A stretch of DNA of 60,973 nt from an uncultured archaeon (GTDB lineage Archaea > Aenigmatarchaeota > Aenigmatarchaeia > QMZP01), in assembly GCA_964353635.1 (NCBI GenBank), contig CAYGVS010000003.1:1-60973 (forward strand). The letters run 5' to 3'. This document shows, piece by piece, positions 8,252-40,932 of this stretch. The position numbers and the translations under genes were made by a program. The stretch's first letter is position 1; every line of letters starts with the position of its first letter. The notes beneath the pieces are model-generated. The model ran no database searches and was not told the DNA's origin. It saw only the letters and a list, made by a program, of their open reading frames with translations.

Positions 8252-8313
8252 TATATAAAAAATGTTTCTCTGGCAAGCAATCCCTGCACAGCCCATCAGA
8301 TTTTATTATTTTA
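8252..8313. promoter_or_regulatory. Divergent promoter region with two TATA-like boxes
   Basis: tatataaaaaa (8252-8262) lies ~26-36 nt from the ATG of the minus-strand giant gene. ttttattatttta (8301-8313) lies ~25-35 nt upstream of the ATG at 8336. This spacing would fit leaderless or short-leader archaeal transcripts. Confidence 0.35.
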
Positions 8314-8335: not shown

Positions 8336-8728
8336 ATGAAAGGGCAGATGTTCTTGATCACCATGATATTCATGACGGGCCTTGTCTTCATGGTCCAGCA
8401 GCTTCTTATCCAGTATTCTGCCCTGGACCTTTCAGCCCCTTTCAGGGAGAACGAGATATACCTTCTCCGAAACACAAGGGACATCATTAACACCACAATC
8501 AAGAGCACGCCTGACTGCGAGGTGTTCTCTGACAAGATGGAATCCCTGGCGAACTTCCTCAATTCAAGGGACCCCAAAGGGGGATATATAATCTCTGTAG
8601 ACTACAGGCTGAACTGCGCATACTGGGGCAATACTCCTCCTGCCCAGGCCCCCTTGAATGTCTCAGTCAAGATTGTAACAACAATGAAATCCGAGTCGAG
8701 TGAGAACTACTTCATGTACAGTGCCTAA
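8336..8728 (+). CDS. Pilin-like protein with class III (prepilin-type) signal peptide
   Basis: The N-terminus MKGQ/MFLITMIFMTGLVFMVQQ has a short basic leader, KGQ, then ~20 hydrophobic residues. It is the first gene of a 7-gene same-strand set. Confidence 0.6.
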   Translation: MKGQMFLITMIFMTGLVFMVQQLLIQYSALDLSAPFRENEIYLLRNTRDIINTTIKSTPDCEVFSDKMESLANFLNSRDPKGGYIISVDYRLNCAYWGNTPPAQAPLNVSVKIVTTMKSESSENYFMYSA

Positions 8729-8785
8729 TTTATAAGCGTGCACGGACAATATTTACATATGCCTGCTAAAGAGGGAAGGCGACAC

Positions 8786-9394
8786 ATGTCGCCTTCAGGC
8801 CAAAAAAAAGGTGCCATTGAGCTTAGTCTTAGTTTCATAGTCACTGTTGTTTTTGCAGTTGTTTTGCTGAGCTTGGCCATTATGTGGCTCCAAGGATTCT
8901 TCGGGCAGCTGCCAGGAATAAGCAACAATCTTGTTCAGCAAGCTCAGGCAAAGATTCAGGATACGTTCGCCAATACGCAGAGTAATTTTGCAATCTGGCC
9001 CACACAGTATCCCATTAAGGCAGGGGACAATATCAGAATGTGCGCTGGAATAAAGAACGATGCTGACGATGGAATGGGTCATGATTTTGCTATAAAGGTT
9101 GAATTAGTATCCGCAAGTCTTAGCATATGCTCGACAGGTGATGTGACCACATGCGGGAACCTCAAGACGACTGTTGAGAATAACTGGTTAAGTTATAATA
9201 AGAAAAAATCTCCCATTTCAATAGGTGGCATCGATGCATGTAGGCCCATTGATTTAACTGTTCCTGCCAACGCGAAGAAAGGTAACTACATATTTGACAT
9301 ACTCGCATGCAAGGATGTTGCATCGTCAGATGAATGCACTGCTGAAAACATGTGGGGTGGAAGTGCACAACATCTGACCTTAACAGTGAACTAA
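8786..9394 (+). CDS. Pilin-like protein with class III signal peptide
   Basis: The ATG at 8786 is preceded by gagggaagg (8771-8779). N-terminus MSPSGQKKG/AIELSLSFIVTVVFAVVLLSLAI. The track ORF starts earlier, at 8738. Confidence 0.65.
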   Translation: MSPSGQKKGAIELSLSFIVTVVFAVVLLSLAIMWLQGFFGQLPGISNNLVQQAQAKIQDTFANTQSNFAIWPTQYPIKAGDNIRMCAGIKNDADDGMGHDFAIKVELVSASLSICSTGDVTTCGNLKTTVENNWLSYNKKKSPISIGGIDACRPIDLTVPANAKKGNYIFDILACKDVASSDECTAENMWGGSAQHLTLTVN

Positions 9395-9435
9395 ATTCTG
9401 AGAATAATATATTCCAGCTAACCATATAGTACTAC

Positions 9436-9906
9436 ATGGACGTTTCCATGATTTTCGGCATAATCTTCACCCTCATTCTTATCGGTTTTATTCTGGTTTT
9501 TGGGGGAGAGCAAATCGCCAATTTATTAGGATTAGGAACACAGACCCAAGTCCTCAAGACCATAGACAATCTTCAGGAGAAAGTGGATGAGATATACAGG
9601 CTTGCTGAGAATTCTGCTGAGGAATTCAAGCTTTCCTTCCCAAAGGAATACAAATTATGCTTCTTCAATACTTCGGACCCGAAGCAGCACCTGTCAGCAG
9701 GATGGAATCCAGACATCACAATGCTTTATCTGATAAACCAGAGCAGATATAACATATGGTTTTACCAAGGGAACAATAACGCTGCGGGCCAGGGAAAGAG
9801 GATTCCATACCTTGATATTCTCACAGATAAAAATTTCTGCGTCCCAGGGGGCTCCAAGGTCTATGTGACAAAGAGGTGGAGTGGAGTCAGCATAGAGAAG
9901 ATTTGA
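9436..9906 (+). CDS. Small N-terminally anchored pilin-like protein (atypical leader)
   Basis: N-terminus MDVSMIFGIIFTLILIGFILVFGGEQ. It shares the MIFGII helix start with the next ORF and sits in the same operon. Confidence 0.5.
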   Translation: MDVSMIFGIIFTLILIGFILVFGGEQIANLLGLGTQTQVLKTIDNLQEKVDEIYRLAENSAEEFKLSFPKEYKLCFFNTSDPKQHLSAGWNPDITMLYLINQSRYNIWFYQGNNNAAGQGKRIPYLDILTDKNFCVPGGSKVYVTKRWSGVSIEKI

Positions 9907-9913
9907 GGTTCGC

Positions 9914-11029
9914 ATGCTCGCAATTCACCGCATCTTCCAGATGATATTCGGGATAATAGTCTCCGTCACCATTCTCTATTTCCTGATTGTCTATTCAGGC
10001 CAGTACAAGCAGAACCAGGAGGACTTTCAGAAGGCGCTGATACTGAAGGCCTTTGCTGATGAGGCGAAGAGCGTCTACCTCACAGGCATATCCACGAACT
10101 TCACCCAGTTCTACAAGTATGACTTCTCCTCATGCTTCATTAAACCCCAGACAAAGTCCCTTCCTGAAATGCAGTGCATGGGGACTGGCATTGCAGACGT
10201 GCCTGTTGACACGCCACTCATCTTCTATCCCGGCAAGCAGGTGTACATAAGCAGGGGCTCCCTGGATTACGGCTGGTGGGTGTACAACTTCGCTGAGGCC
10301 ATGCCCAGCATCACCTTTGTATTCAATCCAGAAGGCTCCCAGGAAGAGAAGGATGTCATAACCAGCATTGTGCAGCTTATACCTGACACCACTGATGACT
10401 GGAGCGTGGTCAAGGTCGGGTTCGCAATATGCGATGGCGGCAGCTTGTCCAACTGTGGGGACCAGCCTTGCAGCAAAGATGATATTCTCTCAATTATCAG
10501 CTCATGGGAAGCTAAAACCAAATGCACAGCGTCCCTGAAGAAGAGCATGAAGCTTGTGACAGTCTCCCGGTCATGCGGGAGCTTCATGCCCCAGAGCGGC
10601 GTTTGCATAGGCTATCCCAACACTTATGGTGTGGGCAATGCCTACATCCAGGGCTCCGGGAAGGAGTATGTATGGAAGGACCCCCTTGACCTTGTGGCCC
10701 TCTCTCTGGGAGGCTCTGAGAAGGATGAGTTCGGGAAGACCGCAGGAGAGAAGCTCTATGAGATCAAGAATTCAGCCCTTATGGCAAGGCTCTCCCTGGC
10801 CGCGGACATCACTTCCAGGAGGATAGAGCTGATCCTGCGCAGCATCAGCCCTGACAATCCTTGTTATGCGTCTTATGTAAGCCTTGTGAACGAGCTTTCA
10901 GGCATTGGTGGGAAGGATTACACAGACCTTTCCCAGATGGATGGGCTAAACCAGCATCTGAACGCTGCAAAAGCATACTTCCAGAGCCTGGAGGAAGCGG
11001 GCTGCGAGAGGAGCATGTATGGAGCGTAA
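9914..11029 (+). CDS. N-terminally anchored pilin-like protein, 371 aa
   Basis: N-terminus MLAIHRIFQMIFGIIVSVTILYFLIVYSG. It starts 8 nt after the previous stop. The globular remainder has several Cys. Confidence 0.5.
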   Translation: MLAIHRIFQMIFGIIVSVTILYFLIVYSGQYKQNQEDFQKALILKAFADEAKSVYLTGISTNFTQFYKYDFSSCFIKPQTKSLPEMQCMGTGIADVPVDTPLIFYPGKQVYISRGSLDYGWWVYNFAEAMPSITFVFNPEGSQEEKDVITSIVQLIPDTTDDWSVVKVGFAICDGGSLSNCGDQPCSKDDILSIISSWEAKTKCTASLKKSMKLVTVSRSCGSFMPQSGVCIGYPNTYGVGNAYIQGSGKEYVWKDPLDLVALSLGGSEKDEFGKTAGEKLYEIKNSALMARLSLAADITSRRIELILRSISPDNPCYASYVSLVNELSGIGGKDYTDLSQMDGLNQHLNAAKAYFQSLEEAGCERSMYGA

Positions 11030-11513
11030 TCCGGCCAGAAAAGGCCAGTCAGAGATAATGGAATACATAGTCATGGTAGTCCTCATAGTGGCAGCAATCA
11101 TAGCCATAATATTATTCCTGAGCTGGTGGAGCATAATGCAGATCGAGATGCAGGGGTCCAAGAACCAGAATGATAAGATTGTCTCTCTTGGCCAGATGAT
11201 AATGGGAGACTACATGCTCATAAACGAGCAGGCAATGCTTGATGACGCCAAGCTCACATCGCTGGTATCAATGAGCTCTGAAGGATGCGAACGGCTCCAG
11301 GCCTTGCTGGGAGCAAACTGGTACGCCAAAATAAAATCCCTTGACATGGAAGGAGATATCCCTTGCACGTGGGGGAATTACCCGGATTGCAACTCCTGGA
11401 CCATATGCGAATACAAAGAGCCTCACATAGCTCAGGTGTTCCCGGTCAATGTCTACAGGAAGCTATCTGACAAGGCCGCCCTGGCTGTGCTCGAGGTGGG
11501 GGTGTACACATGA
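11019..11513 (+). CDS. Pilin-like protein with class III signal peptide
   Basis: N-terminus MERNPARKGQ/SEIMEYIVMVVLIVAAIIAIILFL (KGQ + E at +2/+3, DUF361/EppA-substrate-like pattern). It overlaps the upstream gene by 11 nt. Confidence 0.65.
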   Translation: MERNPARKGQSEIMEYIVMVVLIVAAIIAIILFLSWWSIMQIEMQGSKNQNDKIVSLGQMIMGDYMLINEQAMLDDAKLTSLVSMSSEGCERLQALLGANWYAKIKSLDMEGDIPCTWGNYPDCNSWTICEYKEPHIAQVFPVNVYRKLSDKAALAVLEVGVYT

Positions 11514-12028
11514 ATTCAAAGAAGGCCCAAAGCAGCATGATCCTGATAATAATAGTAATAATGATATTCGTGGCCATGATAGTCTTCCTGCTCAACCTGG
11601 CAGGCTCAGTGAACAGGGAGACCTACACCAACCTCTATGTGAACAACCTTCTCCTGTCCGTTATGAGGACAGACACAGGATACACTGACTCCAAATGCAA
11701 GCTTGTCTCAGACCTTGTATTCTGCGCGTACTTTACGCCGGAGTGGAGGTGTGGGAATGAAAGATGCCTTGACCTGGCGAACGAGACCCTGCACAAATAC
11801 CTGGGGGTCTTCGCCAAACAGACCAACAGCAGCATGAGATACCTTTTCACAGTCACCACGAACACGCTGGCCACCAATGAAGGGGAGCCGATAACCCTTG
11901 AAATGGGTGATGCGTCAATCAAGACAGCCAAGGCCACAAAAAGATACTCTTATCCTCTTGTGCTCACCAAGTCGGACGGCTTCAACCAGCACACCCTGAA
12001 GATACAGCTCGTGGTCGCCAAGAACTAG
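11510..12028 (+). CDS. Pilin-like protein with class III-like signal peptide
   Basis: N-terminus MNSKKAQ/SSMILIIIVIMIFVAMIVFLL. ATGA overlap with the upstream stop. Confidence 0.55.
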   Translation: MNSKKAQSSMILIIIVIMIFVAMIVFLLNLAGSVNRETYTNLYVNNLLLSVMRTDTGYTDSKCKLVSDLVFCAYFTPEWRCGNERCLDLANETLHKYLGVFAKQTNSSMRYLFTVTTNTLATNEGEPITLEMGDASIKTAKATKRYSYPLVLTKSDGFNQHTLKIQLVVAKN

Positions 12029-12095
12029 GCAAGACATTGCTATCTGGAATTTCCGTCACATTATAATATATACCAAGAAAGATAATTAGTTATAT

Positions 12096-13964
12096 ATGGC
12101 TAAAGGCCAGGCTGAGATAGCTGTGATTCTGGGCATCGTGATTGTTGCAGCTGTTGTTGTAATTTATGCCGTCCTACCCATTATCGATTCAGGAATTCCA
12201 GGCCCTATTAGGCTGAAATACAATGCCTTCAAGGCCTCATTTGAAGGCCTTGTGAGGGAGGGCTCCCAGGACGCCTTGACTAAGCTCAGCTCCAATGGCG
12301 GCTATGCTGACAATCTGTCTTTCCAGATGGGCTCTGTGAAGTTCCTTGACAAGGATGTCCCATACTGGCAGCTCAACGGCCAGGTGAAATACCCCGATGT
12401 CAAGTCCAATTTCGATTCTCTGATTAGTTCATACATAACCCAGAACAAGGACAAGCTGCTGCAGGAAACGGGAATGAGCGGGATAGAGCTTGGGAATGCC
12501 CAGGTCTCCACCAAATTCTATGACAGCAAAATAACCGTGACAGTTAACATGCCCACAACGATTGACGACCAGAAGATTAATCCCCCCTACACTTCTTACA
12601 TTTTTGATATCCAGACAAGATTATCCCAGATAAACGACTTCGCCAAGGGCTTCAGCCAATATGAAGTTGCCCAAAGGCCTCTTGAATACTTCACACTATC
12701 CTCCATGGTTCTGAGCCCCATTGAGCAGGACGTGCAGACCGTTCCTGTCACCGTATCCCTCACTCAATGTGGGGAGTATGTCTTCAAGAGCTGGTGGGAT
12801 GTAAGGCCTGAGATGGAGAAAGTCGTGCAGACCACCCTTTCCAATGTGTACATGCCTGGAAAGGCGCCCACGGATTACATGAGAAGCTCCGCTTATCCAA
12901 AATACACTCTCGTCCCCATTAGCGGAAAGAGGTACGAGGACCTTGAGGTGGATTTCTTCACCCCCGATGAGTTCTCACTCTCCCAGCCTGATTTCCAGTT
13001 CACCCCTGACCCCATATCAGCCACTGCGAACTTCATCCCCATGACAGGCCTGTGCCTTTCTGACCCTGTTTATGTCAATTATTACCTTTCTTACCCCGCA
13101 ATCGTGCGGGTAAAGGACACGCTGACACAGAACGTGTTCCAGTTCGCTGTTGATGTTTACATAAGGGATAACCTGCCAGGCCCCTGGGCTAACCAGTCAA
13201 GCTATGAGTCTGATGCCCAGAAGCAGATTTGCTCCAACTACCAGTGCTTTGCGGACCTAAATGTGAAAGACAGCTCAGGCAGGCCTCTTGATTCAGCTGA
13301 GGTCATGTTCATGGGCTGCAGCCTCGGAAGGACAAACTCGCTTGGCAGGCTCATGGCAGCAGCCCCATGCGGCATAGGACCTTTGCAGATATACAAAGCT
13401 GGGTACAGCTTCCAGCCAGTGATGCAGAGCTCTGACAAACTAGTCGGGTTGGCTCTCACCCTTACAAAGACTCCTGTAGTCAGGCTGCACTTCTATGAAG
13501 CGATAGTGCAGAATCTGACTGGGCAATACAGCATAAACAAGGCTGACATCAGCCCGCTGGCAGAGAACCACAGGATTTACATGAAGCTGTATGACATGAA
13601 AGCGAACCAGCTGTATGAGAGGGGATTCAGCACAGCAGGAAGCCTTCTTAACAATATGCCTGCCAGCGATTACATAATCGCCGCTAGCCTTTACTCTGTC
13701 GACAAGGACATCCAAGGCATAAACAGGGTGACCGAACTCGGGAGCATACTGCTCAATTACACGCTGTCTGAGGGGTTGGACGGCAAGGACCTTTACGTCT
13801 ATTTCCCCAGCACCATACAATACAGCCAGATAACAGACTCAACACAAAAGGCCGCATCCGGCCTCATGTTATCAAGCCTCCTGTACCATTGCGGCCTGGG
13901 ACCGATAACCAAAAACAGCACGCCGGGCTTCACCGTTTGCATAAAGGGATATGATGAAATATAA
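12096..13964 (+). CDS. Large (622 aa) pilin-like protein with class III signal peptide
   Basis: N-terminus MAKGQ/AEIAVILGIVIVAAVVVIYAV. An AT-rich attataatatata box lies ~35 nt upstream. The 3' end overlaps the next gene by 14 nt. Confidence 0.65.
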   Translation: MAKGQAEIAVILGIVIVAAVVVIYAVLPIIDSGIPGPIRLKYNAFKASFEGLVREGSQDALTKLSSNGGYADNLSFQMGSVKFLDKDVPYWQLNGQVKYPDVKSNFDSLISSYITQNKDKLLQETGMSGIELGNAQVSTKFYDSKITVTVNMPTTIDDQKINPPYTSYIFDIQTRLSQINDFAKGFSQYEVAQRPLEYFTLSSMVLSPIEQDVQTVPVTVSLTQCGEYVFKSWWDVRPEMEKVVQTTLSNVYMPGKAPTDYMRSSAYPKYTLVPISGKRYEDLEVDFFTPDEFSLSQPDFQFTPDPISATANFIPMTGLCLSDPVYVNYYLSYPAIVRVKDTLTQNVFQFAVDVYIRDNLPGPWANQSSYESDAQKQICSNYQCFADLNVKDSSGRPLDSAEVMFMGCSLGRTNSLGRLMAAAPCGIGPLQIYKAGYSFQPVMQSSDKLVGLALTLTKTPVVRLHFYEAIVQNLTGQYSINKADISPLAENHRIYMKLYDMKANQLYERGFSTAGSLLNNMPASDYIIAASLYSVDKDIQGINRVTELGSILLNYTLSEGLDGKDLYVYFPSTIQYSQITDSTQKAASGLMLSSLLYHCGLGPITKNSTPGFTVCIKGYDEI

Positions 13965-16900
13965 GGTAATAGCTCTGGAATCGCTTGCGATATTCGTGTC
14001 ATACCTAGTGTTCTCCCTCACCCTGGTCTCGGCGACCAATGTCAACATAATCTTCAACAACCAGGTGCAGGGCACTGCAACATATTCCCAGGAGGACCAT
14101 GTGAACATGAAGATATCCCCGAAGCATGAGGCCTCTGACATAACATGGACCAATGTGAAGCTTACGGTCAATGTGAACAGCGCAAGCCTGGGGCATAGCA
14201 TAACGAAGATATTCCTCTACAAGTGCCTTTCCCAGACCCCGACTGAATGCGCGCGCACCACCCCGGAGGTCTTTGACAATTATATTGATACAGATCTTCT
14301 CTGGAAGGACATTTCCCAGAAGACCGGCACAAGCCAGTATCCCCAGGCAGGCAATCTGCTCTTCATTGTGAAGCTCGAGGACCAGAACGGGAAGGAGAAC
14401 TGGGTCGGGTTCTTCACCCAGACCAAGAGGATGTCATACAACACTTTCGACACCCAGCAGCTTAGCATTAACAGCATAGAGGTCTATGCTAAATCCCTTA
14501 ATCTTGTGGAGCCCATAAAAGCATACATTGAGAACAAGCTCATGATCCCATTCAAGTGGGCCACCAAAGTCGCATTCACCGACTCCACCCAGCTTTATGC
14601 AATGGGGGGAAGCGCCTCTGAGATGGACTCGCACAACCTCCAGACTGCCATCGTATCCTCATCAGAGATTGCGTCCTTAAACAAGGAGTTCTATTTTGTC
14701 TCGCCCAAGACAAGCTCAGGCATAGCGAACCCCATTCTGCTTAACCTCAACCCTTCATTCGCCTGCGGGGACAACAAATGCGAGTCAGATATAGGGGAAA
14801 GCTCTGACTCCTGCTGCCTTGACTGCGGATGCGGCATAGGGCAGTACTGTGATGTGCCGGCAGACGCCAACCTCAGCCAATGCAGGAGCGGAACGCCAGG
14901 GATTTCAGTCATCTCCGCCTCCTCCGCGCTCATATCCGACTGCTCAAGGGGCTTCACTGGCAACATCTCATTAAGGGTCAGCAACCCGCCATCCAGCATT
15001 ACTTACCCTGTGACAGGCACTGTCACGCTTAACGGCACTGTCTACAGCGTCTCCTGCTCTGGGGTTGCCGCAGCGCTTGAGTGCTCGATGCCCATCACAT
15101 CAGGTATAAAATGCGGAGAGGGCTCTTATGTCATTGGCCCAGGCCACATCAACCTCACAATAAACTACAAGGATGGCAAGGGCTCCGCAAGCAAGGCCCT
15201 GAGCACAGCCTTCTCAGGGGTTTCCGTGAGCTATGACTGCGGATGTAGTGAGGGCAACTATTGCGACACTACAAAGAAGAGCTGCCAGTCAGAGTCCGCC
15301 ATCACCCTGGGCATAACCAATCTCACATCCTACCTTGACAATTACCATTCTGGAGATAGGTTATACCTGAAGGCAAAGATATTCAACCCTCCCGAAGGCC
15401 TTGTCCTGGTTGACAAGAGCGCCACAATGAATTTGACTAATGGCCAGGTTTCCCCAGGCACGCCTGACTGCTCAGCACCGAATTCCCAGTTCGAGTACAG
15501 CTGTTCAATCCCGTTCCAGATATCAAGTTACAGCAATGAAAAGGCATATACCTTCTCACCAAATAACCTCTACTTCACAATAACTTACAATGACGGTCCT
15601 CTTGCCAAGACCAAGACCATCTCTGCGCCTTTCGGCCCGGTAAGCATACCCTCTCAGGCATGTGGGGATTCAAGCTGTAATATGGGCGAGTCGCAGTCCA
15701 CATGCTGCCTTGACTGCGGATGTGGAGACAACACAGACCTTTACTGCGATAAGGTTTCTGGATGCCAGAGCCTTAATTCCATCGGGATCTCAATAAGCTC
15801 CCTTTACCCAACCAACTTCACTGACTGTAGGGAGGCCCATGATGCGAACTTGGAGATAGCTGTCAACAATGCCCCAACCGATATGACACTTACCTACTTC
15901 ACATACATGCAGGGAGGCCTTGTCAAAGGCTGGAACCTGGCGTGCGACAAGTCCAGCGTGAACATGCTAAAATGCACCCTGGCCATCCCTGCTCTGGAAA
16001 GCGAAGGCTGCTCCCTTCCCTACAAGGTGATAGGCCCCAATTCATTAAACATAACCATCTCCTTCTACAATGGGAAGAGCAAGCAGGTGACAAAGCAGCT
16101 CTCCACCGCCTTTGGCAATATCATAATCACTCCTGTGTACCACTGTGGAGACGGGACCTGCGAATCCGATCTTGGGGAGAGCGCATCCAACTGCTGCTAC
16201 GACTGCAGCTGCGCCTCTTCCTCTTCCTTCACTAACCATTACTGCGACTACGACATGACAACCAAGCTTGGCGGCTGCATTCCGAAATCCAACATCAAGC
16301 TCATCGTAGACTCCCCCAAGGCCCCAGTCCTCTTGCAAAGCTGCGAGCTCACCAACTCGGTCAACATAAAGGCCCACATAGAGGGCCAGCCCAAGGACAT
16401 GCGGCCTCAGTCCTACTATGCTACACTTAACGGCTCTGCCACTCAATACATATCCTGCAGTCCGGAGCAGGCTTTCTACGGGGCAAACTACACCTTCAAC
16501 TGCACGCTTCTCATCCCCAGGATCAGCAGTTGTCATATAGGCAACACTTACGACTATGAGCCTAACAATTTCTCCATGCTCATAACCTTCAGCAACGCAG
16601 CCGGAGCGAACAGTGTGGAGACCCGCACCCTCACAGGCTCCATCCCTCAAATCCAAATCTACCAGAACATACGCACGCTGTATGACATCATGCAGGATGC
16701 AAGATCCAGAGCCACCCAAAGGATAATGGACCTCAAGAATGTGATAAAGGATCTTATGGATTCCATCAAGGACTGCTATGAAAAGGTAAAGATGATAATG
16801 TACATGACTTTCATCACAGCCATCTTGGTGGGTTACAAGAGTTACCAGGATACACCCGCTCCAACCAATACACCTGGTAGCACTTCCGGTTCGATTAATG

Positions 16901-18543
16901 TCTTTATGAGCGGGCAGAGAGGTAAGGTCACAGCAGCCGCCCAGGACTCTGCATTAACCCTTGCCGCAGGCTCCAGCTTCGCCCAGGCTTGGGCCAAGTT
17001 CTGCGAGTTCCTGCAGACAGAATACCAGATGGCCATCAAGTCGCTTGAAATCGAGCAGAAGCTTGACTCGATGCAAACCTGCTTCGAGGTGCAGCAGCAC
17101 GAGATGGACATAGGCCACTGCGACAAGCAGGAGCAGACATGCTTCACCAGCATGGTGAACTGCATCAACTTCAATGCGATAAGCAGCATAGCCAATGACT
17201 ACAAGACCATCGCATCAGCTGGCTCCACTGTCCTAGGCCAGATGAGCTCGGCCTTCAATCAAGGCGCTACCTATGCGGGCCAGATAGGGGGGAGTACAAT
17301 TACTGGGGCTTATGGAAGCCTTCAGGTGGCATGCAATGGAATGACATCAAGTGAATGCTGTGGAGGCTATAAAGAATCTGTACAGTCGGGTGGCACTGTG
17401 ACATATCCATGCAGATATTCATCTGTCAGATTATCCATTAGTTCGTCGGGTTCCTCCACATCTTGTCCATCATACATAATTTTAGACACTACAAAAGCTG
17501 GAACCAACATAGTTTCGAATTCACAGACAATTTCTGGCAACATGTTCCTGGACGACTGCCACACATATTCATTATATTGTGATTTAAATAGAAACGGAAT
17601 TAAAGATGGAACAGATGCTTTTGTGGGAAGCGTACAAATGACTTTCATGAAAGTCGACCTAACAACTTGCACATGTACAAAACAACCCATAGAATGCGTT
17701 TCTAGCACAGGCCTGACAGCTAACGGAGCCATAATGGGTTGCTGCAACACCAGCAAAACTGAAACGAAATGCGAAAGCGCATCGCAAGTGGCTTGCGTGG
17801 GCCCGAACCCGACGACCGTTTCTTCAATCTCGTCGATTTTCTCCCCTTCGACCAACCAAGGGATTGGTATTTTATGGGAAGGGGGTAAAGAGTGCAGCAA
17901 TAATGTTTGCGTAACGAAAACGACAACCGCGACAACTACTCCTACGGCTGCAACAGGTTGTTGTATTGGTTATTCTGACGAAGTAACAATTAAAGGATGT
18001 ACAGAAGCACTAGATAAATCTTCTTGTGAAGTGCTTGGAGGGAGCTATAAAGGCGGCAATTCGAAATGCACTGACAGTGCATACCAATCTGATTATCAAT
18101 CTATATGTAAAGGAGTGACATCAACACCGTCAATAACATCCACATCTCCAAAAGCACAAATGGATTTGACTGTAGGTGGAGTAAAGGTTACTAGCGCTAC
18201 TCAAAACTTTGCTAGTGGGCAGAAACTTAATTTTGTATGCAATGCTTTGCCATCAACATCTGGCGATAAATACATGCTGAGGCTTACTGTAAAAACTAAA
18301 CTTATAAATGCCAATGATTATGATAGTCCTCTATATGATAATAGCAAAGAGTATACTCCCAATAAAGATGCAACTCCTCAGTTGATGTATAACTATAATG
18401 ATGTTAATTTCGATTGCAATTTTGGAACGCGAATGGTGGTGGGGGATTGCTCCATATATAAGATTCCTTCTGCAACTGTTACTGCATCTACTATAGAAAA
18501 CACTGATACAAAACAACTGACGTGTGTGGGATCAAATTTCTAA
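13951..18543 (+). CDS. 1530-aa cysteine-rich surface protein (putative adhesin) co-oriented with the pilin-like operon
   Basis: Signal-like N-terminus ...LAIFVSYLVFSLTLVSA. Three copies of CGDxxC-x(4-5)-GES-x(3-4)-CC-x-DC-x-C at nt 14761-14835, 15658-15727 and 16141-16212. Internal hydrophobic helix MIMYMTFITAILVGY. The C-terminal third is Cys/Thr-rich. Confidence 0.8.
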   Translation: MMKYKVIALESLAIFVSYLVFSLTLVSATNVNIIFNNQVQGTATYSQEDHVNMKISPKHEASDITWTNVKLTVNVNSASLGHSITKIFLYKCLSQTPTECARTTPEVFDNYIDTDLLWKDISQKTGTSQYPQAGNLLFIVKLEDQNGKENWVGFFTQTKRMSYNTFDTQQLSINSIEVYAKSLNLVEPIKAYIENKLMIPFKWATKVAFTDSTQLYAMGGSASEMDSHNLQTAIVSSSEIASLNKEFYFVSPKTSSGIANPILLNLNPSFACGDNKCESDIGESSDSCCLDCGCGIGQYCDVPADANLSQCRSGTPGISVISASSALISDCSRGFTGNISLRVSNPPSSITYPVTGTVTLNGTVYSVSCSGVAAALECSMPITSGIKCGEGSYVIGPGHINLTINYKDGKGSASKALSTAFSGVSVSYDCGCSEGNYCDTTKKSCQSESAITLGITNLTSYLDNYHSGDRLYLKAKIFNPPEGLVLVDKSATMNLTNGQVSPGTPDCSAPNSQFEYSCSIPFQISSYSNEKAYTFSPNNLYFTITYNDGPLAKTKTISAPFGPVSIPSQACGDSSCNMGESQSTCCLDCGCGDNTDLYCDKVSGCQSLNSIGISISSLYPTNFTDCREAHDANLEIAVNNAPTDMTLTYFTYMQGGLVKGWNLACDKSSVNMLKCTLAIPALESEGCSLPYKVIGPNSLNITISFYNGKSKQVTKQLSTAFGNIIITPVYHCGDGTCESDLGESASNCCYDCSCASSSSFTNHYCDYDMTTKLGGCIPKSNIKLIVDSPKAPVLLQSCELTNSVNIKAHIEGQPKDMRPQSYYATLNGSATQYISCSPEQAFYGANYTFNCTLLIPRISSCHIGNTYDYEPNNFSMLITFSNAAGANSVETRTLTGSIPQIQIYQNIRTLYDIMQDARSRATQRIMDLKNVIKDLMDSIKDCYEKVKMIMYMTFITAILVGYKSYQDTPAPTNTPGSTSGSINVFMSGQRGKVTAAAQDSALTLAAGSSFAQAWAKFCEFLQTEYQMAIKSLEIEQKLDSMQTCFEVQQHEMDIGHCDKQEQTCFTSMVNCINFNAISSIANDYKTIASAGSTVLGQMSSAFNQGATYAGQIGGSTITGAYGSLQVACNGMTSSECCGGYKESVQSGGTVTYPCRYSSVRLSISSSGSSTSCPSYIILDTTKAGTNIVSNSQTISGNMFLDDCHTYSLYCDLNRNGIKDGTDAFVGSVQMTFMKVDLTTCTCTKQPIECVSSTGLTANGAIMGCCNTSKTETKCESASQVACVGPNPTTVSSISSIFSPSTNQGIGILWEGGKECSNNVCVTKTTTATTTPTAATGCCIGYSDEVTIKGCTEALDKSSCEVLGGSYKGGNSKCTDSAYQSDYQSICKGVTSTPSITSTSPKAQMDLTVGGVKVTSATQNFASGQKLNFVCNALPSTSGDKYMLRLTVKTKLINANDYDSPLYDNSKEYTPNKDATPQLMYNYNDVNFDCNFGTRMVVGDCSIYKIPSATVTASTIENTDTKQLTCVGSNF

Positions 18544-18569
18544 GGGATAAAGGTTTATGCAGACAATCA

Positions 18570-18791
18570 CAATAATTAATATATGAAATCCGTTTTGCTT
18601 GGTTTTGCCCTGGCGCTTTTGGTTGTTTCAGGAAGCGCGCAGGCGCTCAAACTCACCGACGGCCTCTACTTCACAGTGCTTCCCAACTCTACAGCTGAGG
18701 TGTATTTCATACTTCCTGATGATGTGGGTGCTGGGATGGGGAAGGCTGATTATTTCATTACCGCAACCGCTATTCCGGACTGGGACAGGGA
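18570..18791 (+). repeat. Direct repeat copy A (diverged duplicate of the 19857-20078 region)
   Basis: Hand alignment at a constant offset of 1287 nt covers 13 nt upstream of the ATG plus the first ~69 codons. Roughly 18 mismatches in 222 nt. Confidence 0.85.
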
Positions 18792-18864
18792 TATGAGCAA
18801 TTGCCCTGGCGCGCTTGCAGGCGAACTATCCAAAAAGGCCTTGCTGATTAGAATGTTACGCTAA
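18583..18864 (+). pseudogene. Truncated 5' remnant of a paralog of the 19870-21288 surface-protein gene
   Basis: The first ~69 aa (MKSVLLGF.LALL.VSGSA.ALKLTDGLYFTVLPNSTAEVYFILPDDVG.GMGKADYFIT.TAIPDWDRD) match the 472-aa gene. The reading frame then runs into unrelated sequence and stops after 24 codons. Confidence 0.7.
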
Positions 18865-18905: not shown

Positions 18906-18958
18906 TGTAAATAATTTACATTAAAGTATTTATAGGACTTCAGTGTAAATAATTTACA
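18906..18958 (+). promoter_or_regulatory. Twin palindromic operator-like sites flanking a TATA-like box, at the HEPN gene start
   Basis: tgtaaatNatttaca occurs exactly twice (18906-18920 and 18944-18958). tatttata lies between them. The second palindrome abuts or overlaps the ATG at 18958. Confidence 0.45.
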
Positions 18959-19308
18959 TGACCATACAAGATGGCTTGAAAAGCGGAATTATTGAGTTCG
19001 AGCAGTCTGCAAGGGAAGAGGAGGCCAAAGGAAGGAATAGGGCTGCGGCCACCCTGTATTTCAAGGCCATTGCCACAGTATGCGATTATGTGATATATCA
19101 AAAGCTCAGGAAGATCCCGGACAACCATGCGGAGAGGTTCAGGATACTTGAAAGCCATTTCATCCTGCTTTATCGGGTGATAGACAGCATTTTCTCAACC
19201 TACCTGCAGACATACCGTTCCGGCATAAGCCAGGAGCAGATGGAGATGATGAAAGATGCTTTCAGAAAGGCTAAAAAGCTTGCAGAGTCTGTCGAGAAAT
19301 GTCTGTAA
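18958..19308 (+). CDS. HEPN-domain-like protein (putative toxin partner of the downstream nucleotidyltransferase)
   Basis: All-helical 116 aa. AATLYFKAIATVCDYVIYQKLRKIPDNHAERFRILESH resembles the HEPN helix-H motif (R-x6-H present). It is paired with a minimal NTase gene. Confidence 0.55.
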   Translation: MTIQDGLKSGIIEFEQSAREEEAKGRNRAAATLYFKAIATVCDYVIYQKLRKIPDNHAERFRILESHFILLYRVIDSIFSTYLQTYRSGISQEQMEMMKDAFRKAKKLAESVEKCL

Positions 19309-19804
19309 AGCCGAGAAGTCTGTGTTTGATGTGGTGCTTTTCGGCTCCTCCATAAAGGAAAAGTACAGGCCGGGGGACATTGACATATGCATAATATTCA
19401 GGCAGGAGATGGAAGAGCGTAAGAGAGAAAGGATAGCGGAAGTTTTTAAAGGATGCCATGTGGAGCATCTTTTCCTTCATGAATTGTACAAGGAGCCATT
19501 ATGGCAGACGCTCATCCATGAAGGGTTTAGCTTGGTGAAAAACAAGTTTGTCCACGAAATCTTCGGATTCGATTCACAGATTATTTTCAGATACGATTTG
19601 AAAAAACTAGACTCTGTAAAGAAATCAATGTTTTCCCATGCATTGGTTGGGAGGGATGGAGAAGGAGGGGTACTCAGGCAAACAAAAGGCATTGTCCTGG
19701 GAAAAGGATGTGTCATGATTCCTGCGGAGGCTTCAGAAAAAATAAGGGAGTTCCTTGAGACGTGGGGAGTGGAGTACTCTGTTATGAAGGCTTTAGTATC
19801 ATGA
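19256..19804 (+). CDS. Minimal nucleotidyltransferase (Pol-beta superfamily, MNT-like)
   Basis: LFGSSIKEKYRPGDIDICIIF is the hG[GS]-x(9-13)-DhD NTase signature. The start is uncertain: the ATG at 19256 overlaps HEPN by 53 nt, and a GTG at 19322 is the alternative. Confidence 0.7.
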   Translation: MLSERLKSLQSLSRNVCKAEKSVFDVVLFGSSIKEKYRPGDIDICIIFRQEMEERKRERIAEVFKGCHVEHLFLHELYKEPLWQTLIHEGFSLVKNKFVHEIFGFDSQIIFRYDLKKLDSVKKSMFSHALVGRDGEGGVLRQTKGIVLGKGCVMIPAEASEKIREFLETWGVEYSVMKALVS

Positions 19805-19856
19805 TTAATTCTTGGGTATTATTGATTATTTTCTTAAAGATATAACAAGTCTACTG

Positions 19857-20078
19857 CAATAATTAATATATGAAATCCGTTTTGCTTGGTTTTACCCTGG
19901 CGCTTTTCTTTGTTTCAGGGAGCGCACATGCGCTCAAGCTCACCGACGGCCTCTACTTCACAGTGCTGCCCAACTCTACTGCTGAGGTGTATTTCATACT
20001 TCCCGATGATGTGGGTACTGGGATGGGGAAGGCTGACTATTTTATCACCACAACCGCTATCCCGGATTGGGACAGGGA
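19857..20078 (+). repeat. Direct repeat copy B (start of the intact surface-protein gene)
   Basis: See copy A at 18570-18791. Confidence 0.85.
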
Positions 20079-34339: not shown

Positions 34340-35557
34340 TTACTTGTTCCCTGGAAGATGTATTTTGACCACGTCAAGCTCCTCTACTTTGAGAGGGATT
34401 TCCAAAACGGATGAGAAGGAAGGCCTTGTCCTTCCGCTGTCCCCGTTTATGAGCTCCTTGATGTAAAGGCCTGCCGATCCCTTTATGGTGAACTCTATCC
34501 TGTTCTTTGGCATGAGCTTCCAGGAAACCGACTTCATGCGCTTTACCCTTGTCTTGTCAGCCCTCCTGTGCATGACCCTGGCTGGCGTCTGCTGGTTTAT
34601 CAGGGAAAGCTTCCTGAGTTTTGGAAGAAGCTCCCTGGGTATTGGTTTCTCAGAAGAGGCAATAGCCCTGTAGGTCTTGTCAGGCATGAGGCTCTTGACC
34701 TTCACGACCTCCTTCCTGTCAGAATACCGCATGCCGGAAACAGCCACCTTTTTTGTGCGGCCTATTTCAGCCTCCATCTTGGCAAGCTGGAAGGCGCGCT
34801 TCTTTGGTGATTCTATTTCCAGGACGAAAGGCCTCCATGCAAGGCACCTGGCATCAATGTCCTCCCTCCCCGAGGCATGCAGCGAGTGCCCGCTTCCGCC
34901 TGATTCCCTCATGAAAGGCTTGGCGATTATGTCTTCTACTGTCTCCTTGTACATCTCCCATTTGGTTTGGGGAATCCCTCTCACAAGCTTCCGGTATCTC
35001 CCATAGACGTAGACCGGGTTAATCTGCAACCTCAGCGCATTCTTCTCCAGGTCAAGGATGAACGCCACATCAGGATTGCTTTCGTCCGGTTCCTTTCCGG
35101 TCTTTGCGGCTATCAGCTTGCCCAGCTCCCTGTTTATCTCTGATTTTATAGGCTCGCAGTTCTCAATCCCGATCTCCTCCCACAGCTCCTCTTCCTTGTG
35201 TACAAGCGAGCTGCTTAGCTTTGTGGAGACCACGAATGTCCTGCACTCTATCCTTGCTAATTTCTTTCCAGCCTGGCTGGCCCATTTCCCCAGCTCATCG
35301 AAGAGGCTGCCGCATATGCTGCATGGCTCGTGCTTCTCCTGGATGGGGATTTTTTTCTTCCTGAAGTCAAGTCCGGAGAAGTTGGCCTTGTCTGTGGGGA
35401 AGGGCTTCATGGAGTATTCCATAGCCAGAATAATCCGTAGGGAGCGGCCCCTCTCCCTGTTAGTGAACCCAGAGAGTATCTGCGCGAACTGCCTTCCCAT
35501 GCAGTTGTCGCACACGTAGCCTTTCTGCAGGATTTCCTTCGCGGTTTCGAGGATCAT
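34340..35557 (-). CDS. pus10: tRNA pseudouridine synthase Pus10 (full length)
   Basis: Zn ribbon CDNCMGRQF...CSICGSLF, THUMP-like middle, catalytic GREDIDARCLAWRPF, and a complete C-terminal lobe. Confidence 0.85.
   Translation of the reverse strand: MILETAKEILQKGYVCDNCMGRQFAQILSGFTNRERGRSLRIILAMEYSMKPFPTDKANFSGLDFRKKKIPIQEKHEPCSICGSLFDELGKWASQAGKKLARIECRTFVVSTKLSSSLVHKEEELWEEIGIENCEPIKSEINRELGKLIAAKTGKEPDESNPDVAFILDLEKNALRLQINPVYVYGRYRKLVRGIPQTKWEMYKETVEDIIAKPFMRESGGSGHSLHASGREDIDARCLAWRPFVLEIESPKKRAFQLAKMEAEIGRTKKVAVSGMRYSDRKEVVKVKSLMPDKTYRAIASSEKPIPRELLPKLRKLSLINQQTPARVMHRRADKTRVKRMKSVSWKLMPKNRIEFTIKGSAGLYIKELINGDSGRTRPSFSSVLEIPLKVEELDVVKIHLPGNK
34691..35089. repeat. 399-bp near-identical tract shared with 36209-36607
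   Basis: Hand alignment at offset 1518 gives 3 mismatches in 399 nt. Identity drops clearly on the 5'-coding side and vanishes on the 3'-coding side. Confidence 0.9.
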
Positions 35558-35593
35558 GGGTATAGTTTGCCTGGTGGGAATATAAATTAAGAA

Positions 35594-37108
35594 TTAGCCT
35601 ATCTTGTATCCTAATAGTTTTAGCCTTTCAGTATATTTCCCAATCTTTTCGCTTTTCTTTCTTGGGTCCAAAAGCGGATCTTCTTTTGCTATCTTGATGG
35701 CCTTATGAAAATCTCCGATGATATCATAAACTGGCCTGAGGCGTGCTTCAAAGCCGTTGATTTTCATTGTCGTGTTGTTTTCCCAATTACTGCTCAGAGC
35801 ATGAGATATTGCGCCTGGATCCATCAAGTCGAATTTAACGCTGCCAAGATTAAACTTGAGATGATCAAGAAATTCGGCCGATATGCTTTCCAATTTGTTT
35901 GGTATTCCCAAGCTATTAAGGGTTTTCGCGATTGCATGTGCGTAAGCTTCTTTTCCTGCGACAATTATGTCTATGTCAGAGGACTCTAAAAGCGCATCTT
36001 GAAGAACCAGGCTTGCTCCGCCGAATACTATGAAATCAGAAGACCTAGGTATGTATTTAGTTTTGGTCTCATATATTCTTGGCTCCGGAATTATTCCATG
36101 TTTTCCCATCATTTGATAGAAACTTATGAGGGCATCAGACAGAATTTCCTTTTTCATGAGGCTTTTGTTTGTGTTTAGATATTTAACCTCGTTGAGGGAA
36201 AACGAAGAGCTCTTGACCTTCACGACCTCCATCCTGTCAGAATACCGCATGCCGGAAACAGCCACTTTTTTTGTGCGGCCTATTTCAGCCTCCATCTTGG
36301 CAAGCTGGAAGCCGCGCTTCTTTGGTGATTCTATTTCCAGGACGAAAGGCCTCCATGCAAGGCACCTGGCATCAATGTCCTCCCTCCCCGAGGCATGCAG
36401 CGAGTGCCCGCTTCCGCCTGATTCCCTCATGAAAGGCTTGGCGATTATGTCTTCTACTGTCTCCTTGTACATCTCCCATTTGGTTTGGGGAATCCCTCTC
36501 ACAAGCTTCCGGTATCTCCCATAGACGTAGACCGGGTTAATCTGCAACCTCAGCGCATTCTTCTCCAGGTCAAGGATGAACGCCACATCAGGATTGCTTT
36601 CGTCCGGCTCCTTTCCAGTCTTCTCAGCAATCAGCTTGCCCAGCTCCCTGTTCACCTCTGATTTAATGGGCTCGCAGTGCTCTATACCTATGTCCTCCCA
36701 CAGGGATTCCTCATTCTGGACAAGCGCCCTGCTAAGCATTGTGGACACCACGAAGGTCCTGCATTCGATTCCAGCCAGCTTCTTTTCCGCCTGGCCGGCC
36801 CACTTATCAAGGTTTTCAAAGAGGCCGCTGCAGGTTTTACAAGGCTCATGTCTATCCGGCATTTGGATTTTTTTTCTGAAGTTCAGGCCTGAGAAATTCG
36901 CCTTATCTATCGGGAAAGGCTTTATGGAGTACTCCATGGCCAGAGCAATCCGTATGGAGCAGCCCCTTTCCCTGTTCGTGAATCCAGAAAGGAGCTGAGC
37001 GAACTGACGGCCCAGGCAATTATCGCAGACGTATCCTTTCTGGAGGATTTCCTTGGAGGTATCGAGAACCATGGGTATAATTTCAATCGCAAGAATAAAA
37101 ACTATCAT
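35594..37108 (-). CDS. Chimeric protein: Pus10 N-terminal ~300 aa fused to a Pol-beta-type nucleotidyltransferase-like C-terminal domain
   Basis: The N-terminal part parallels Pus10 up to ...MRYSDRMEVVKVKS. It then continues as an unrelated ~205 aa with FGGASLVLQDALLESSDIDIIV (hGG-x13-DhD). The ATG at 37108 overlaps the upstream stop (ATGA). An alternative ATG at 37072 (MVLDTSKEIL) aligns with the Pus10 start. Confidence 0.75.
   Translation of the reverse strand: MIVFILAIEIIPMVLDTSKEILQKGYVCDNCLGRQFAQLLSGFTNRERGCSIRIALAMEYSIKPFPIDKANFSGLNFRKKIQMPDRHEPCKTCSGLFENLDKWAGQAEKKLAGIECRTFVVSTMLSRALVQNEESLWEDIGIEHCEPIKSEVNRELGKLIAEKTGKEPDESNPDVAFILDLEKNALRLQINPVYVYGRYRKLVRGIPQTKWEMYKETVEDIIAKPFMRESGGSGHSLHASGREDIDARCLAWRPFVLEIESPKKRGFQLAKMEAEIGRTKKVAVSGMRYSDRMEVVKVKSSSFSLNEVKYLNTNKSLMKKEILSDALISFYQMMGKHGIIPEPRIYETKTKYIPRSSDFIVFGGASLVLQDALLESSDIDIIVAGKEAYAHAIAKTLNSLGIPNKLESISAEFLDHLKFNLGSVKFDLMDPGAISHALSSNWENNTTMKINGFEARLRPVYDIIGDFHKAIKIAKEDPLLDPRKKSEKIGKYTERLKLLGYKIG
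36209..36607. repeat. 399-bp near-identical tract shared with 34691-35089
   Basis: See 34691-35089. The lower boundary (36209) coincides with the fusion junction. Confidence 0.9.
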
Positions 37109-39943: not shown

Positions 39944-40420
39944 TCACTCAAGTATGAGCGGCTGTGACGCCTTCAGTATCTTGATTTTTTCCTCCATCTC
40001 ACTCATCCTTTCCACTAACGGGTCCAAATCGAACTTCTGCATGCTGCCTTCGAGCCAGTGACTCTTCGCCTTGAGGCTTTCAAGGTCCCTTGTCAGGCTC
40101 TTCATGTTAAGCCTGTTCATCTCCTCTTCCAGGCTCATCACTCTGGCCATGTCATCCTTTAGGAACTTTATTTCAGCTTCCATCTTCTCAACCAGGTGGG
40201 TGTTTTTCTTTATGCTCTCCCTGACCTCGCTTTTGAGATGCTGGAACTCCCTTGCTATATCCTCCTCAAGGGTTCTGATGTTCCTGTCAGAAAGGATTGA
40301 GCTCTTGAGCGTCTCTATCTCCAGCTGCATCCCCCTTATCTCGCTAAGGACAGCAGCCGTGCCATTATCTGGCTGTTCGTGTTTCTCAGGAGCATGCTTC
40401 TTAAGCATGAGTTTGCGCAT
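39944..40420 (-). CDS. Coiled-coil protein (~158 aa)
   Basis: The start is set at MRKLMLKK (ATG 40420) because the longer ORF overlaps the upstream gene and a tttttatt box lies ~25 nt upstream. Heptad-like E/K/L-rich sequence. Confidence 0.55.
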   Translation of the reverse strand: MRKLMLKKHAPEKHEQPDNGTAAVLSEIRGMQLEIETLKSSILSDRNIRTLEEDIAREFQHLKSEVRESIKKNTHLVEKMEAEIKFLKDDMARVMSLEEEMNRLNMKSLTRDLESLKAKSHWLEGSMQKFDLDPLVERMSEMEEKIKILKASQPLILE

Positions 40421-40461
40421 GAATATAATTTGGATTGACTGAATAAAAAGCCCGCGGAATC

Positions 40462-40932
40462 TCAGAGCTCCTGCTTCAGGCTGTAGCCCTTGCACACGCT
40501 GTTGAGAACCTGCACCTCTGTCAGCTGGCCTGCCAGATTCTCTGTTATGTTGGCCTCTATGACAATGGATTCAGAAGGCTTGAGGGAGTTGTCAGCATCA
40601 ATCTGCTCTTTTGCCGGGAAGGATTTGTATCCAGTGCCCTGTATGTAGACCTGGAAAGAGAATCCGTAAAGGTTGATTGTGCCGGTATTGATTATCTTGG
40701 CTCTAAGCCAGTCGCTTCCACCTGAAAAATCCCATTCCACACCGTTGCTTCCGAAGGAGGAGTCGAAATCATAGCTTGTGCTCTGGCATGTTATCTGGCT
40801 ATTGGCGTTCTGTCCTGTGCTGTTAGCTTGATTTCTGGCGAGGTTTAATGCCCATGGCCCTATGATCCCTGCTATCACCACTATGATGGATATCACGAGA
40901 ATCGTGGATAGGATAGCGTCAATGGCTTTCAT
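40462..40932 (-). CDS. Archaeal type IV pilin-like protein (Pilin_N-type N-terminus)
   Basis: MKAIDAILSTILVISIIVVIAGIIGPW resembles the archaeal pilin N-terminal helix (..A.S.VI...L...I.V....). The beta-rich remainder follows. ATGA overlap with the upstream gene. Confidence 0.6.
   Translation of the reverse strand: MKAIDAILSTILVISIIVVIAGIIGPWALNLARNQANSTGQNANSQITCQSTSYDFDSSFGSNGVEWDFSGGSDWLRAKIINTGTINLYGFSFQVYIQGTGYKSFPAKEQIDADNSLKPSESIVIEANITENLAGQLTEVQVLNSVCKGYSLKQEL

Follow-up and report, generated by a model that had tools for sequence, protein, structure and literature searches.

Whether a row of eight genes on a 60,973-nucleotide (nt) contig of an uncultured archaeon (GTDB lineage Archaea; Aenigmatarchaeota; Aenigmatarchaeia; QMZP01) encodes a type IV filament (TFF) device for contact with a host is the question raised by this locus. 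The whole stretch (GenBank assembly GCA_964353635.1, contig CAYGVS010000003.1, positions 1 to 60,973, forward strand) is called the window here. Seven genes for small and medium-sized proteins (g1 to g7, in order) lead into the gene of a 1530-amino-acid (aa) protein (g8), and flanking genes carry the prefixes up_ and dn_. Aenigmarchaeota, a DPANN phylum, are inferred to be host-dependent and to live in contact with their hosts (PMC8407114). The answer favoured here, with slightly better than even confidence, is that the cluster is a TFF-type pilin or pseudopilin set with an exchangeable g7-g8 adhesin cartridge for host contact, its assembly machinery being encoded elsewhere.

Each of the proteins g1 to g7 has exactly one hydrophobic helix, which is N-terminal, and an even number of cysteines (Table 1). 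The original prediction, made from the sequence alone, took all seven for prepilins. This stands for g1, g2, g5, g6 and g7, which have a class-III-type N-terminus, in which a short basic leader with [K/R][G/A/S] as its last two residues precedes Q or A and about 20 hydrophobic residues (a slash marks the predicted cleavage position below). The same short basic leader and hydrophobic helix are found in their orthologues, which are 25-65% identical. It does not stand for g3, which has no leader, or for g4, which has no G/A at position -1 (..HRIFQMIFG..); judged by motif, the number of prepilin-type genes is five, not seven. In g3 the helix starts at once (M[DNS]V[SG]MIFG), and among 10 orthologues seven likewise have M[DNS]V[SG] as their very first residues.

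Orthologues for this comparison were gathered from 30 genome loci. The g1 motif K[GA]/[QE]MF is kept in seven of eight orthologues, the eighth (L005) beginning at a contig end, and the g2 motif [KR][GA]/A[IF][EQ][LM]SL is valid for the A4 orthologues. The g5 motif, [KR][GS]/Q....E[YH], is kept in 10/10 orthologues and in the class B loci described below. That of g6 is [KR][AG]/Q[ST]S, with [KR][AG]/Q in 11/11 orthologues (K in 10, R in L004). In g7 (KG/Q[AVT]E[IF]), Q5 (the +1 Gln) and E7 (the +3 Glu) are invariant in 28 sequences, and the +1 Gln is at least 90% conserved even in g7 paralogues of only about 21% identity. A polar or charged residue is conserved within the helix of g2 (E/Q at +3), g5 (E at +6) and g7 (E at +3). 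A +1 Gln is the flavour of EppA substrates, known from Methanococcus. The claim of a class III signal with +1 Gln is thus supported, the motif being conserved across four families and in these distant paralogues. The motif is commoner in the cluster than chance would give: of the 108 open reading frames (ORFs) with 100 aa or more that the window contains, 11 fit a loose class-III pattern, five of them in the cluster and two in a pilin-like pair at 40462-41642; all four N-termini with [KR][GA]Q and a helix belong to the cluster.

Conservation is concentrated in the same region. Orthologues of g1 to g6 are 53-73% identical in the N-terminal helix and 35-44% in the remainder. The g2 helix is by far the best conserved (73% vs 35% for the rest of g2), which makes the original remark that no major pilin is obvious doubtful. 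Between families, similarity in hhalign comparisons is limited to the N-terminal part, to at most about 57 residues, or 85 for the g3-g4 pair, whose homology over the first 85 residues has a probability of 94% (E 1.7e-7). An N-terminal helix more conserved than the globular part and families alike only at their N-termini are hallmarks of pilins. These N-termini are therefore considered class-III-type and pilin-like on the basis of the motif, the helix conservation and the confinement of family likeness to the N-terminus.

The gene arrangement is as first described. All eight plus-strand ORFs are found in the ORF list at the positions then given, the cysteine-rich giant g8 included (Table 1), and the junctions are tight or overlapping, with a gap of 7 nt between g3 and g4 and overlaps of 11 nt (g4-g5), 4 nt (g5-g6, as ATGA) and 14 nt (g7-g8). 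The overlap of the g8 start with the g7 stop, or a near-abutment, is kept in orthologues and paralogues. The g2 ORF opens at a GTG at 8738 (218 aa); the ATG at 8786 (202 aa) is favoured by the orthologues. Four of the genes, g1 (box at 8301-8313), g2, g3 and g7, have an A/T-rich TATA-like box 23-38 nt ahead of the ATG. Their placement suggests four transcription units (g1, g2, g3-g6 and g7-g8) rather than one operon.

Table 1. Genes of the cluster and its surface-protein neighbours, with window positions
Gene	Start	End	Strand	Length (aa)	N-terminus	Cys	Description
g1	8336	8728	+	130	MKG/QMFLITMIF	2	pilin-like
g2	8786	9394	+	202	..KKG/AIELSLSFIVTVVFAVVLLSLAI	6	candidate principal (polymerising) subunit
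g3	9436	9906	+	156	MDVSMIFGIIF...	2	pilin-like, without leader
g4	9914	11029	+	371	MLAIHRIFQMIFGIIVS	10	N-terminal helix without G/A cleavage motif
g5	11019	11513	+	164	..RKG/QSEIMEYIVMVVLIV	4	
g6	11510	12028	+	172	..KKA/QSSMILIIIV	4	
g7	12096	13964	+	622	MAKG/QAEIAVILG	8	large modular class-III-signal protein; Cys conserved
g8	13951	18543	+	1530	..VSA/TNV	76	Sec-type signal, no C-terminal anchor
dn_472	19870	21288	+				surface glycoprotein, Sec signal and C-terminal transmembrane segment; context, possibly co-functional
dn_556	21348	23018	-				Cys-rich surface protein, Sec signal and C-terminal transmembrane segment; conserved convergent position; context
up_2051	2071	8226	-	2051			surface protein, MG2 domain, 68 sequons, divergent from g1; context

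The cluster recurs as a unit and also in parts. Related loci comprise 30 genome loci and 76 metagenome loci, the latter from a scan using the g2 alignment and two patterns, one of them the g2 motif given above. The order g1 to g8, for which a search of related genomes had been suggested, recurs in more than 25 Aenigmarchaeota contigs: it is kept in L002-L006, L008-L010, L012 and L030 and in about 17 metagenome loci, at 25-65% identity overall and 30-65% for the ten loci named. These approximately 17 of 76 metagenome loci carry g2 to g8, most of them also g1. The eight genes are usually followed by orthologues of the anchored surface proteins dn_472 and dn_556, and wherever a class A locus extends far enough, a dn_472 orthologue comes after g8. 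In class B loci (13/76 of the metagenome set: L042, L051, L053, L055, L064, L069, L072, L073, L077, L078, L083, L084 and L092), g2 to g6 occur without g1, g7 and g8, beside ERCC4 and CTP-synthase genes like those of the window. Their ERCC4 is 50-57% identical to the window copy, and they therefore belong to the same phylum-level group. Downstream of g6 these loci instead have a conserved ORF (about 350 aa) and a radical SAM gene of the MiaB-like kind.

Solitary pairs of g7-like and g8-like genes also exist, one of their locations being next to alaS, the gene of alanyl-tRNA synthetase. Some share a metagenome-assembled genome (MAG) with a full cluster (L013 with L005, L016 with L003, L026 with L004), and in L019 and L024 two tandem g7 copies precede a single g8. 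Because g2-g6 occur alone and g7-g8 pairs occur on their own, the system is modular: g2-g6 make up the core, g7-g8 are a cartridge of which a genome holds more than one version, and g1 is the third part. In some relatives a long C-terminal extension is fused to the g1 orthologue (L010 3082-6273, 1063 aa; L002 5303-6313, 336 aa); as judged from these ORFs, g1 can also be a large modular subunit.

The gene content of the window is archaeal: it includes genes for TFIIB, for a thermosome subunit and for two Pus10 proteins, and glycosylation genes form a large block. With the cluster region, up_2051, up_523, dn_472 and dn_556 form an island of surface genes of about 23 kb. The MG2 domain of up_2051 is of the alpha-2-macroglobulin kind, and the position of this gene upstream of the cluster is kept only in the closest relatives.

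The AlphaFold2 (AF2) models of g7, made for the whole chain and for residues 1-380, are confident (whole chain, predicted local distance difference test (pLDDT) 87.6 and predicted template modelling score (pTM) 0.75; residues 1-380 alone, pLDDT 88.3). The modelled chain consists of a helix (4-29), a Pro-rich low-confidence linker of variable length, a second helix (36-66) that opens an alpha/beta domain (36-375), and immunoglobulin (Ig)-like or transthyretin-like beta domains (384-572). The transmembrane helix and the second helix are parted by the flexible linker, and no pilin is among the Foldseek matches: the whole chain retrieves Ig-like tandem domains only, and residues 1-380 have no neighbour in PDB (best E 0.018, TM-score below 0.15) or among the BFVD viral models. 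According to the model, g7 joins a class III signal to a globular domain that matched no known structure, and it is not a recognisable pilin. Its homologues form 219 clusters (50% identity) at E<=1e-30, all named ones are from Candidatus Aenigmarchaeota or Aenigmatarchaeota, which makes the organism a DPANN archaeon, and some paralogues carry a C-terminal VWA domain. Among the families of the cluster, VWA is found only on these g7 paralogues and not on g8.

The g8 protein combines a conserved body with a variable end. Residues 1 to about 1150 are common to 22 aligned homologues and include an N-domain (29-270) that is retained in distant paralogues too, three modules of a CGDxxC..CCxDCxC knot plus an Ig-like domain (at 272, 571 and 732) and a helical region (905-1130). 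From about 1150 follows a hypervariable, sequon-poor tail. The tails are mutually non-homologous, 88-561 aa long, and built of PKD, Big, FN3-like or Cys-rich modules. A C-terminal anchor is absent from g8 and from every homologue. A hydrophobic segment of 19-22 aa, variable in sequence, follows the invariant C942 in 23/23 sequences (about 943-962 in g8), and both of its flanks look extracellular, being Cys-rich and, after the segment, containing PKD, Big and HINT domains.

N-glycosylation sequons are unevenly distributed along g8. Beyond the hydrophobic segment (about 966-1530), 12 are observed in 23 homologues vs 97 expected from shuffles, an eight-fold depletion, whereas the N-terminal part is at chance (217 observed vs 250 expected). 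The cytoplasmic proteins of the window are at chance (35 vs 30.9 expected), and its anchored neighbours are enriched two- to three-fold (68 vs 29 for up_2051, 9 vs 3.3 for dn_472). That g8 is a simple type I membrane protein whose C-terminal half lies in the cytoplasm was considered and is unlikely, since that half is Cys-rich, has PKD, Big or HINT domains in its homologues and shows a deficit of sequons where a neutral number would be expected.

One g8 orthologue in a fully syntenic contig (P0069, L030 10001-14659) has a PT-HINT domain at 1240-1358 followed by a Cys-rich end of 190 aa, which could be a cassette like those of polymorphic toxins or else an insertion of the BIL type. It was rejected as proof of a toxin system because it is found in 1/23 homologues and is accompanied by no toxin or immunity gene. 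In the window, g8 has no pre-toxin or toxin domain, and the next gene is the conserved dn_472, which is not immunity-like.

The assembly machinery was searched for in and around the cluster. A Pfam comparison of all plausible window genes yields no T2SSE, T2SSF or A24 peptidase, which bears out the early observation that 61 kb contain no machinery; thus the window holds no cognate FlaI/PilB ATPase or FlaJ/PilC platform with which to complete a type IV filament. None of these three families is among the precomputed Pfam matches of the genes around L001, L002 and L030. Homologues of FlaG, FlaI and FlaJ are reported from most Aenigmarchaeota MAGs (PMC8407114), and DPANN genomes contain undetectably diverged pilins according to Makarova et al. 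(PMC6393860). Unlinked machinery is therefore not anomalous.

The cluster resembles several known systems in part. By motif, its closest archaeal relative is the EppA-processed Epd pilus of Methanococcus maripaludis (TFF system 1, DUF361/PF04021), which likewise has basic leaders ending in K-G with a +1 Gln, several distinct pilin genes in a row and some pilins apart from the ATPase/platform locus. TFF system 1 has been reported in some DPANN archaea (10.64898/2026.04.22.720090). However, the cluster has no significant PF04021 match, places an acidic residue at +3 or +6 instead of the QxSxE register, includes subunits of up to 622 aa and two leaderless members, and has no peptidase, ATPase or platform gene in or near it.

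The closest functional analogue is the bacterial type IVa pilus (T4aP) minor-pilin operon fimU-pilVWXY1E or GspG-K of the type II secretion system (T2SS). Shared features are a run of four to seven pilin-like genes ahead of a large Sec-exported non-pilin, a location away from pilB, pilC and pilD, the possibility of several alternative minor-pilin/PilY1 sets in one genome, and VWA modules on some members; like GspG-K, g2-g6 form a five-gene core with one well-conserved "major" member. This is an analogy of function only; there is no sequence or fold homology, and the cluster is archaeal. In addition, g8 differs from PilY1 in its internal hydrophobic helix and hypervariable tail and, with its 22 homologues, has no Neisseria_PilC or other PilY1/PilC-type Pfam match; a PDB profile search with g8 as a tip-adhesin candidate was also empty.

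A class III N-terminus that carries large extra domains is shared with the modular type IV pilins PilB and PilC of Streptococcus sanguinis (grafted vWA or lectin domains) and with the binding proteins of the Sulfolobus bindosome, g7 having Ig-like or transthyretin-like domains and, in some paralogues, VWA. Unlike in the former, no pilin module can be recognised in the membrane-proximal domain of g7, and unlike the latter g7 has no substrate-binding-protein domain. The conserved body of about 1150 aa and non-homologous tail of g8, with one PT-HINT orthologue, recall polymorphic toxins and variable surface proteins, from which the cluster differs in having no toxin or immunity domains and in the near-absence of HINT, which the window g8 lacks.

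In the favoured model, g1, g2, g5, g6 and g7 would be synthesised as preproteins with a short basic leader, which a class III signal peptidase of the EppA/PibD type, its gene lying elsewhere, would cut after [K/R][G/A/S], exposing an N-terminal Gln (Ala in g2) on the hydrophobic helix. The g3 and g4 proteins would join the same assembly uncleaved. The helices would bundle into a short pilus or pseudopilus, with g2 as the main subunit and g3-g6 as minor or priming subunits, assembled by an ATPase of the FlaI/PilB type on a FlaJ/PilC platform, both likewise from other loci. The g7 protein, presumably coupled to g8 in translation, would tether the Sec-exported, anchorless g8 to this structure, and the conserved Cys-knot/Ig stalk of g8 would bear a C-terminal head, exchangeable and free of glycans, that touches the host cell. 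A role of g8 as adhesin is suggested because it has no anchor, because its tails vary in length and domains, and because VWA occurs on g7 paralogues; that it sits at the tip can only be conjectured.

For the minor-pilin and adhesin interpretation of the original prediction speak the class III N-termini, the well-conserved N-helices of g1-g6, the coupling of an anchorless g8 to g7 and the host-dependent DPANN lifestyle; the prepilin nature of g3 and g4 did not hold up, and neither a curated pilin profile nor, for the modelled g7, the fold of a solved pilin is matched. Neither Pilin_N (PF07790) nor Class_IIIsignal (PF04021) nor any NCBIfam/TIGR archaeal pilin or flagellin N-terminal model matches g1-g7, the full-length proteins giving nothing at E<=1, and full-length g1-g8 have no Pfam or NCBIfam match. 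Among 36 N-termini searched with hidden Markov models (HMMs) at E<=10, two matched PF04021 (best E 0.38) and two TadF (E 0.079), all below threshold. Sequence-profile searches of g7, g8 and g2 against PDB gave nothing below E 0.2, the value at which g2 shows a weak beta-sandwich-like hint. Membership of a curated family thus fails at the HMM level and, for the modelled g7, at the fold level, and the cluster belongs to no annotated family.

Besides this failure of the pilin models, several results weigh against a filament. A Walker-A pattern detects no T2SSE-type ATPase in the flanks (±10 kb) of about 105 related loci, where it matches adenylate-kinase-like, KaiC-like and ORC-like ATPases only. 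Since no machinery is linked, the connection to TFF systems comes from motif logic and phylum-level literature and not from this genome. The linker in the g7 model separates the transmembrane helix from the globular domain, this domain has no structural match to any pilin, and the g7 helix is conserved no better than the remainder of g7 (48% vs 47%). Finally, with their cleavage motif missing, g3 and g4 are, from their sequences, not prepilins.

Much of this would suit a static, membrane-anchored envelope platform that holds g8, comparable to a bindosome or an archaellum stator, in which the class-III-like N-termini, cleaved or uncleaved, are just anchors and no ATPase drives polymerisation. 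The modelled g7, with its transmembrane helix, flexible linker and non-pilin globular domain, fits such a platform, as do the leaderless g3 and g4, which resemble anchored proteins of the FlaF/FlaG type, the lack of any linked ATPase in all those loci, and the conserved anchored surface glycoproteins dn_472, dn_556 and up_2051 next to the cluster. We nevertheless regard it as rather unlikely: the N-helices of g1-g6 are far better conserved than is usual for simple anchors, g2 above all, and the invariant polar or charged residues within the helices, together with the +1 Gln, argue for specific processing and helix-helix packing. It is quite improbable that the genes encode unrelated signal-anchored envelope proteins serving envelope biogenesis or maintenance rather than attachment, with [K/R][G/A]Q as a lineage-specific feature that has no tie to TFF systems. 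That known pilins and TFF components show no homology in sequence or fold, and that no machinery is linked, would be expected in that case, but a basic leader, G/A at -1, Q at +1 and an adjoining helix of about 20 residues bearing an acidic one are unlikely to coincide by chance, as are five to seven such genes in a row with a giant secreted partner.

The peculiarities of the C-terminal half of g8 invite another explanation, a contact-dependent device in which the pilin-like set presents a translocon-like, fusogen-like or polymorphic-toxin-like g8 whose C-terminal half enters or crosses the host membrane. The hydrophobic segment, universal in position and variable in sequence between extracellular-looking flanks, would agree with this, and so would the sequon deficit beyond it, in a window whose cytoplasmic proteins are at chance and whose anchored surface proteins are enriched, and the PT-HINT domain ahead of the C-terminal end of P0069. 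Yet g8 has no recognisable toxin, pore-forming or fusogen domain, no immunity-like gene follows it, the single PT-HINT domain could be a BIL-type insertion, and the hydrophobic helix may be buried in a bundle or an oligomer interface; the explanation is accordingly given little credence. Equally speculative is its extension to a contact organelle found across the sampled Aenigmarchaeota clades, with g2-g6 as a pseudopilus-like stalk, g7-g8 as cartridges and g8 as the translocon or fusogen that opens a connection between symbiont and host. If this were true, g8 would represent a novel type of membrane-active protein that a TFF system presents.

To our knowledge, the means by which DPANN archaea recognise and hold their hosts are largely unknown, and we know of no cultured representative of the Aenigmarchaeota. 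The conserved, unannotated module described here, with its five-gene pilin-like core, its g7-g8 pair with a hypervariable head and its extra copies of that pair, supplies concrete candidates for the attachment apparatus and for determinants of host range. With a TFF-type set, the archaeal TFF repertoire would gain seven families that have no Pfam or NCBIfam match and one domain with no structural neighbour. The internal hydrophobic helix of g8 and the avoidance of N-glycosylation sites in its distal half are directly testable features.

A second pilin-like pair is located on the minus strand within 39944-41642 and is followed by a coiled-coil ORF. Its leader is of the type MKA/I..., without Gln, and because of this difference the genome has two kinds of class III substrates. 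One member (40462-40932) weakly matches Pilin_N (E 9e-4) and the other (40929-41642) weakly matches DUF7289; no machinery is encoded nearby.

Downstream of g8, the promoter and the 5' end of dn_472 are present twice, in the form of a direct repeat of 244 nt whose copies (18548-18791 and 19835-20078) are 89% identical. The two copies flank an insertion of 1.29 kb with a 116-aa ORF (18958-19308) and a nucleotidyltransferase-domain ORF (19256-19804), a pair that by sequence looks like an MNT/HEPN-type toxin-antitoxin system. The MNT ORF has no tblastn match in the related loci. The 93-aa duplicated fragment (18583-18864) has tblastn matches there only within the intact dn_472 orthologue, and as far as these matches indicate, the related loci appear to lack the extra copy of the dn_472 fragment.

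The two Pus10 (tRNA pseudouridine synthase) proteins are encoded by adjacent paralogues on the minus strand (34340-37108). In the second of them (504 aa), the match to the catalytic domain is confined to the first half of that domain, and the C-terminal part is unrelated.

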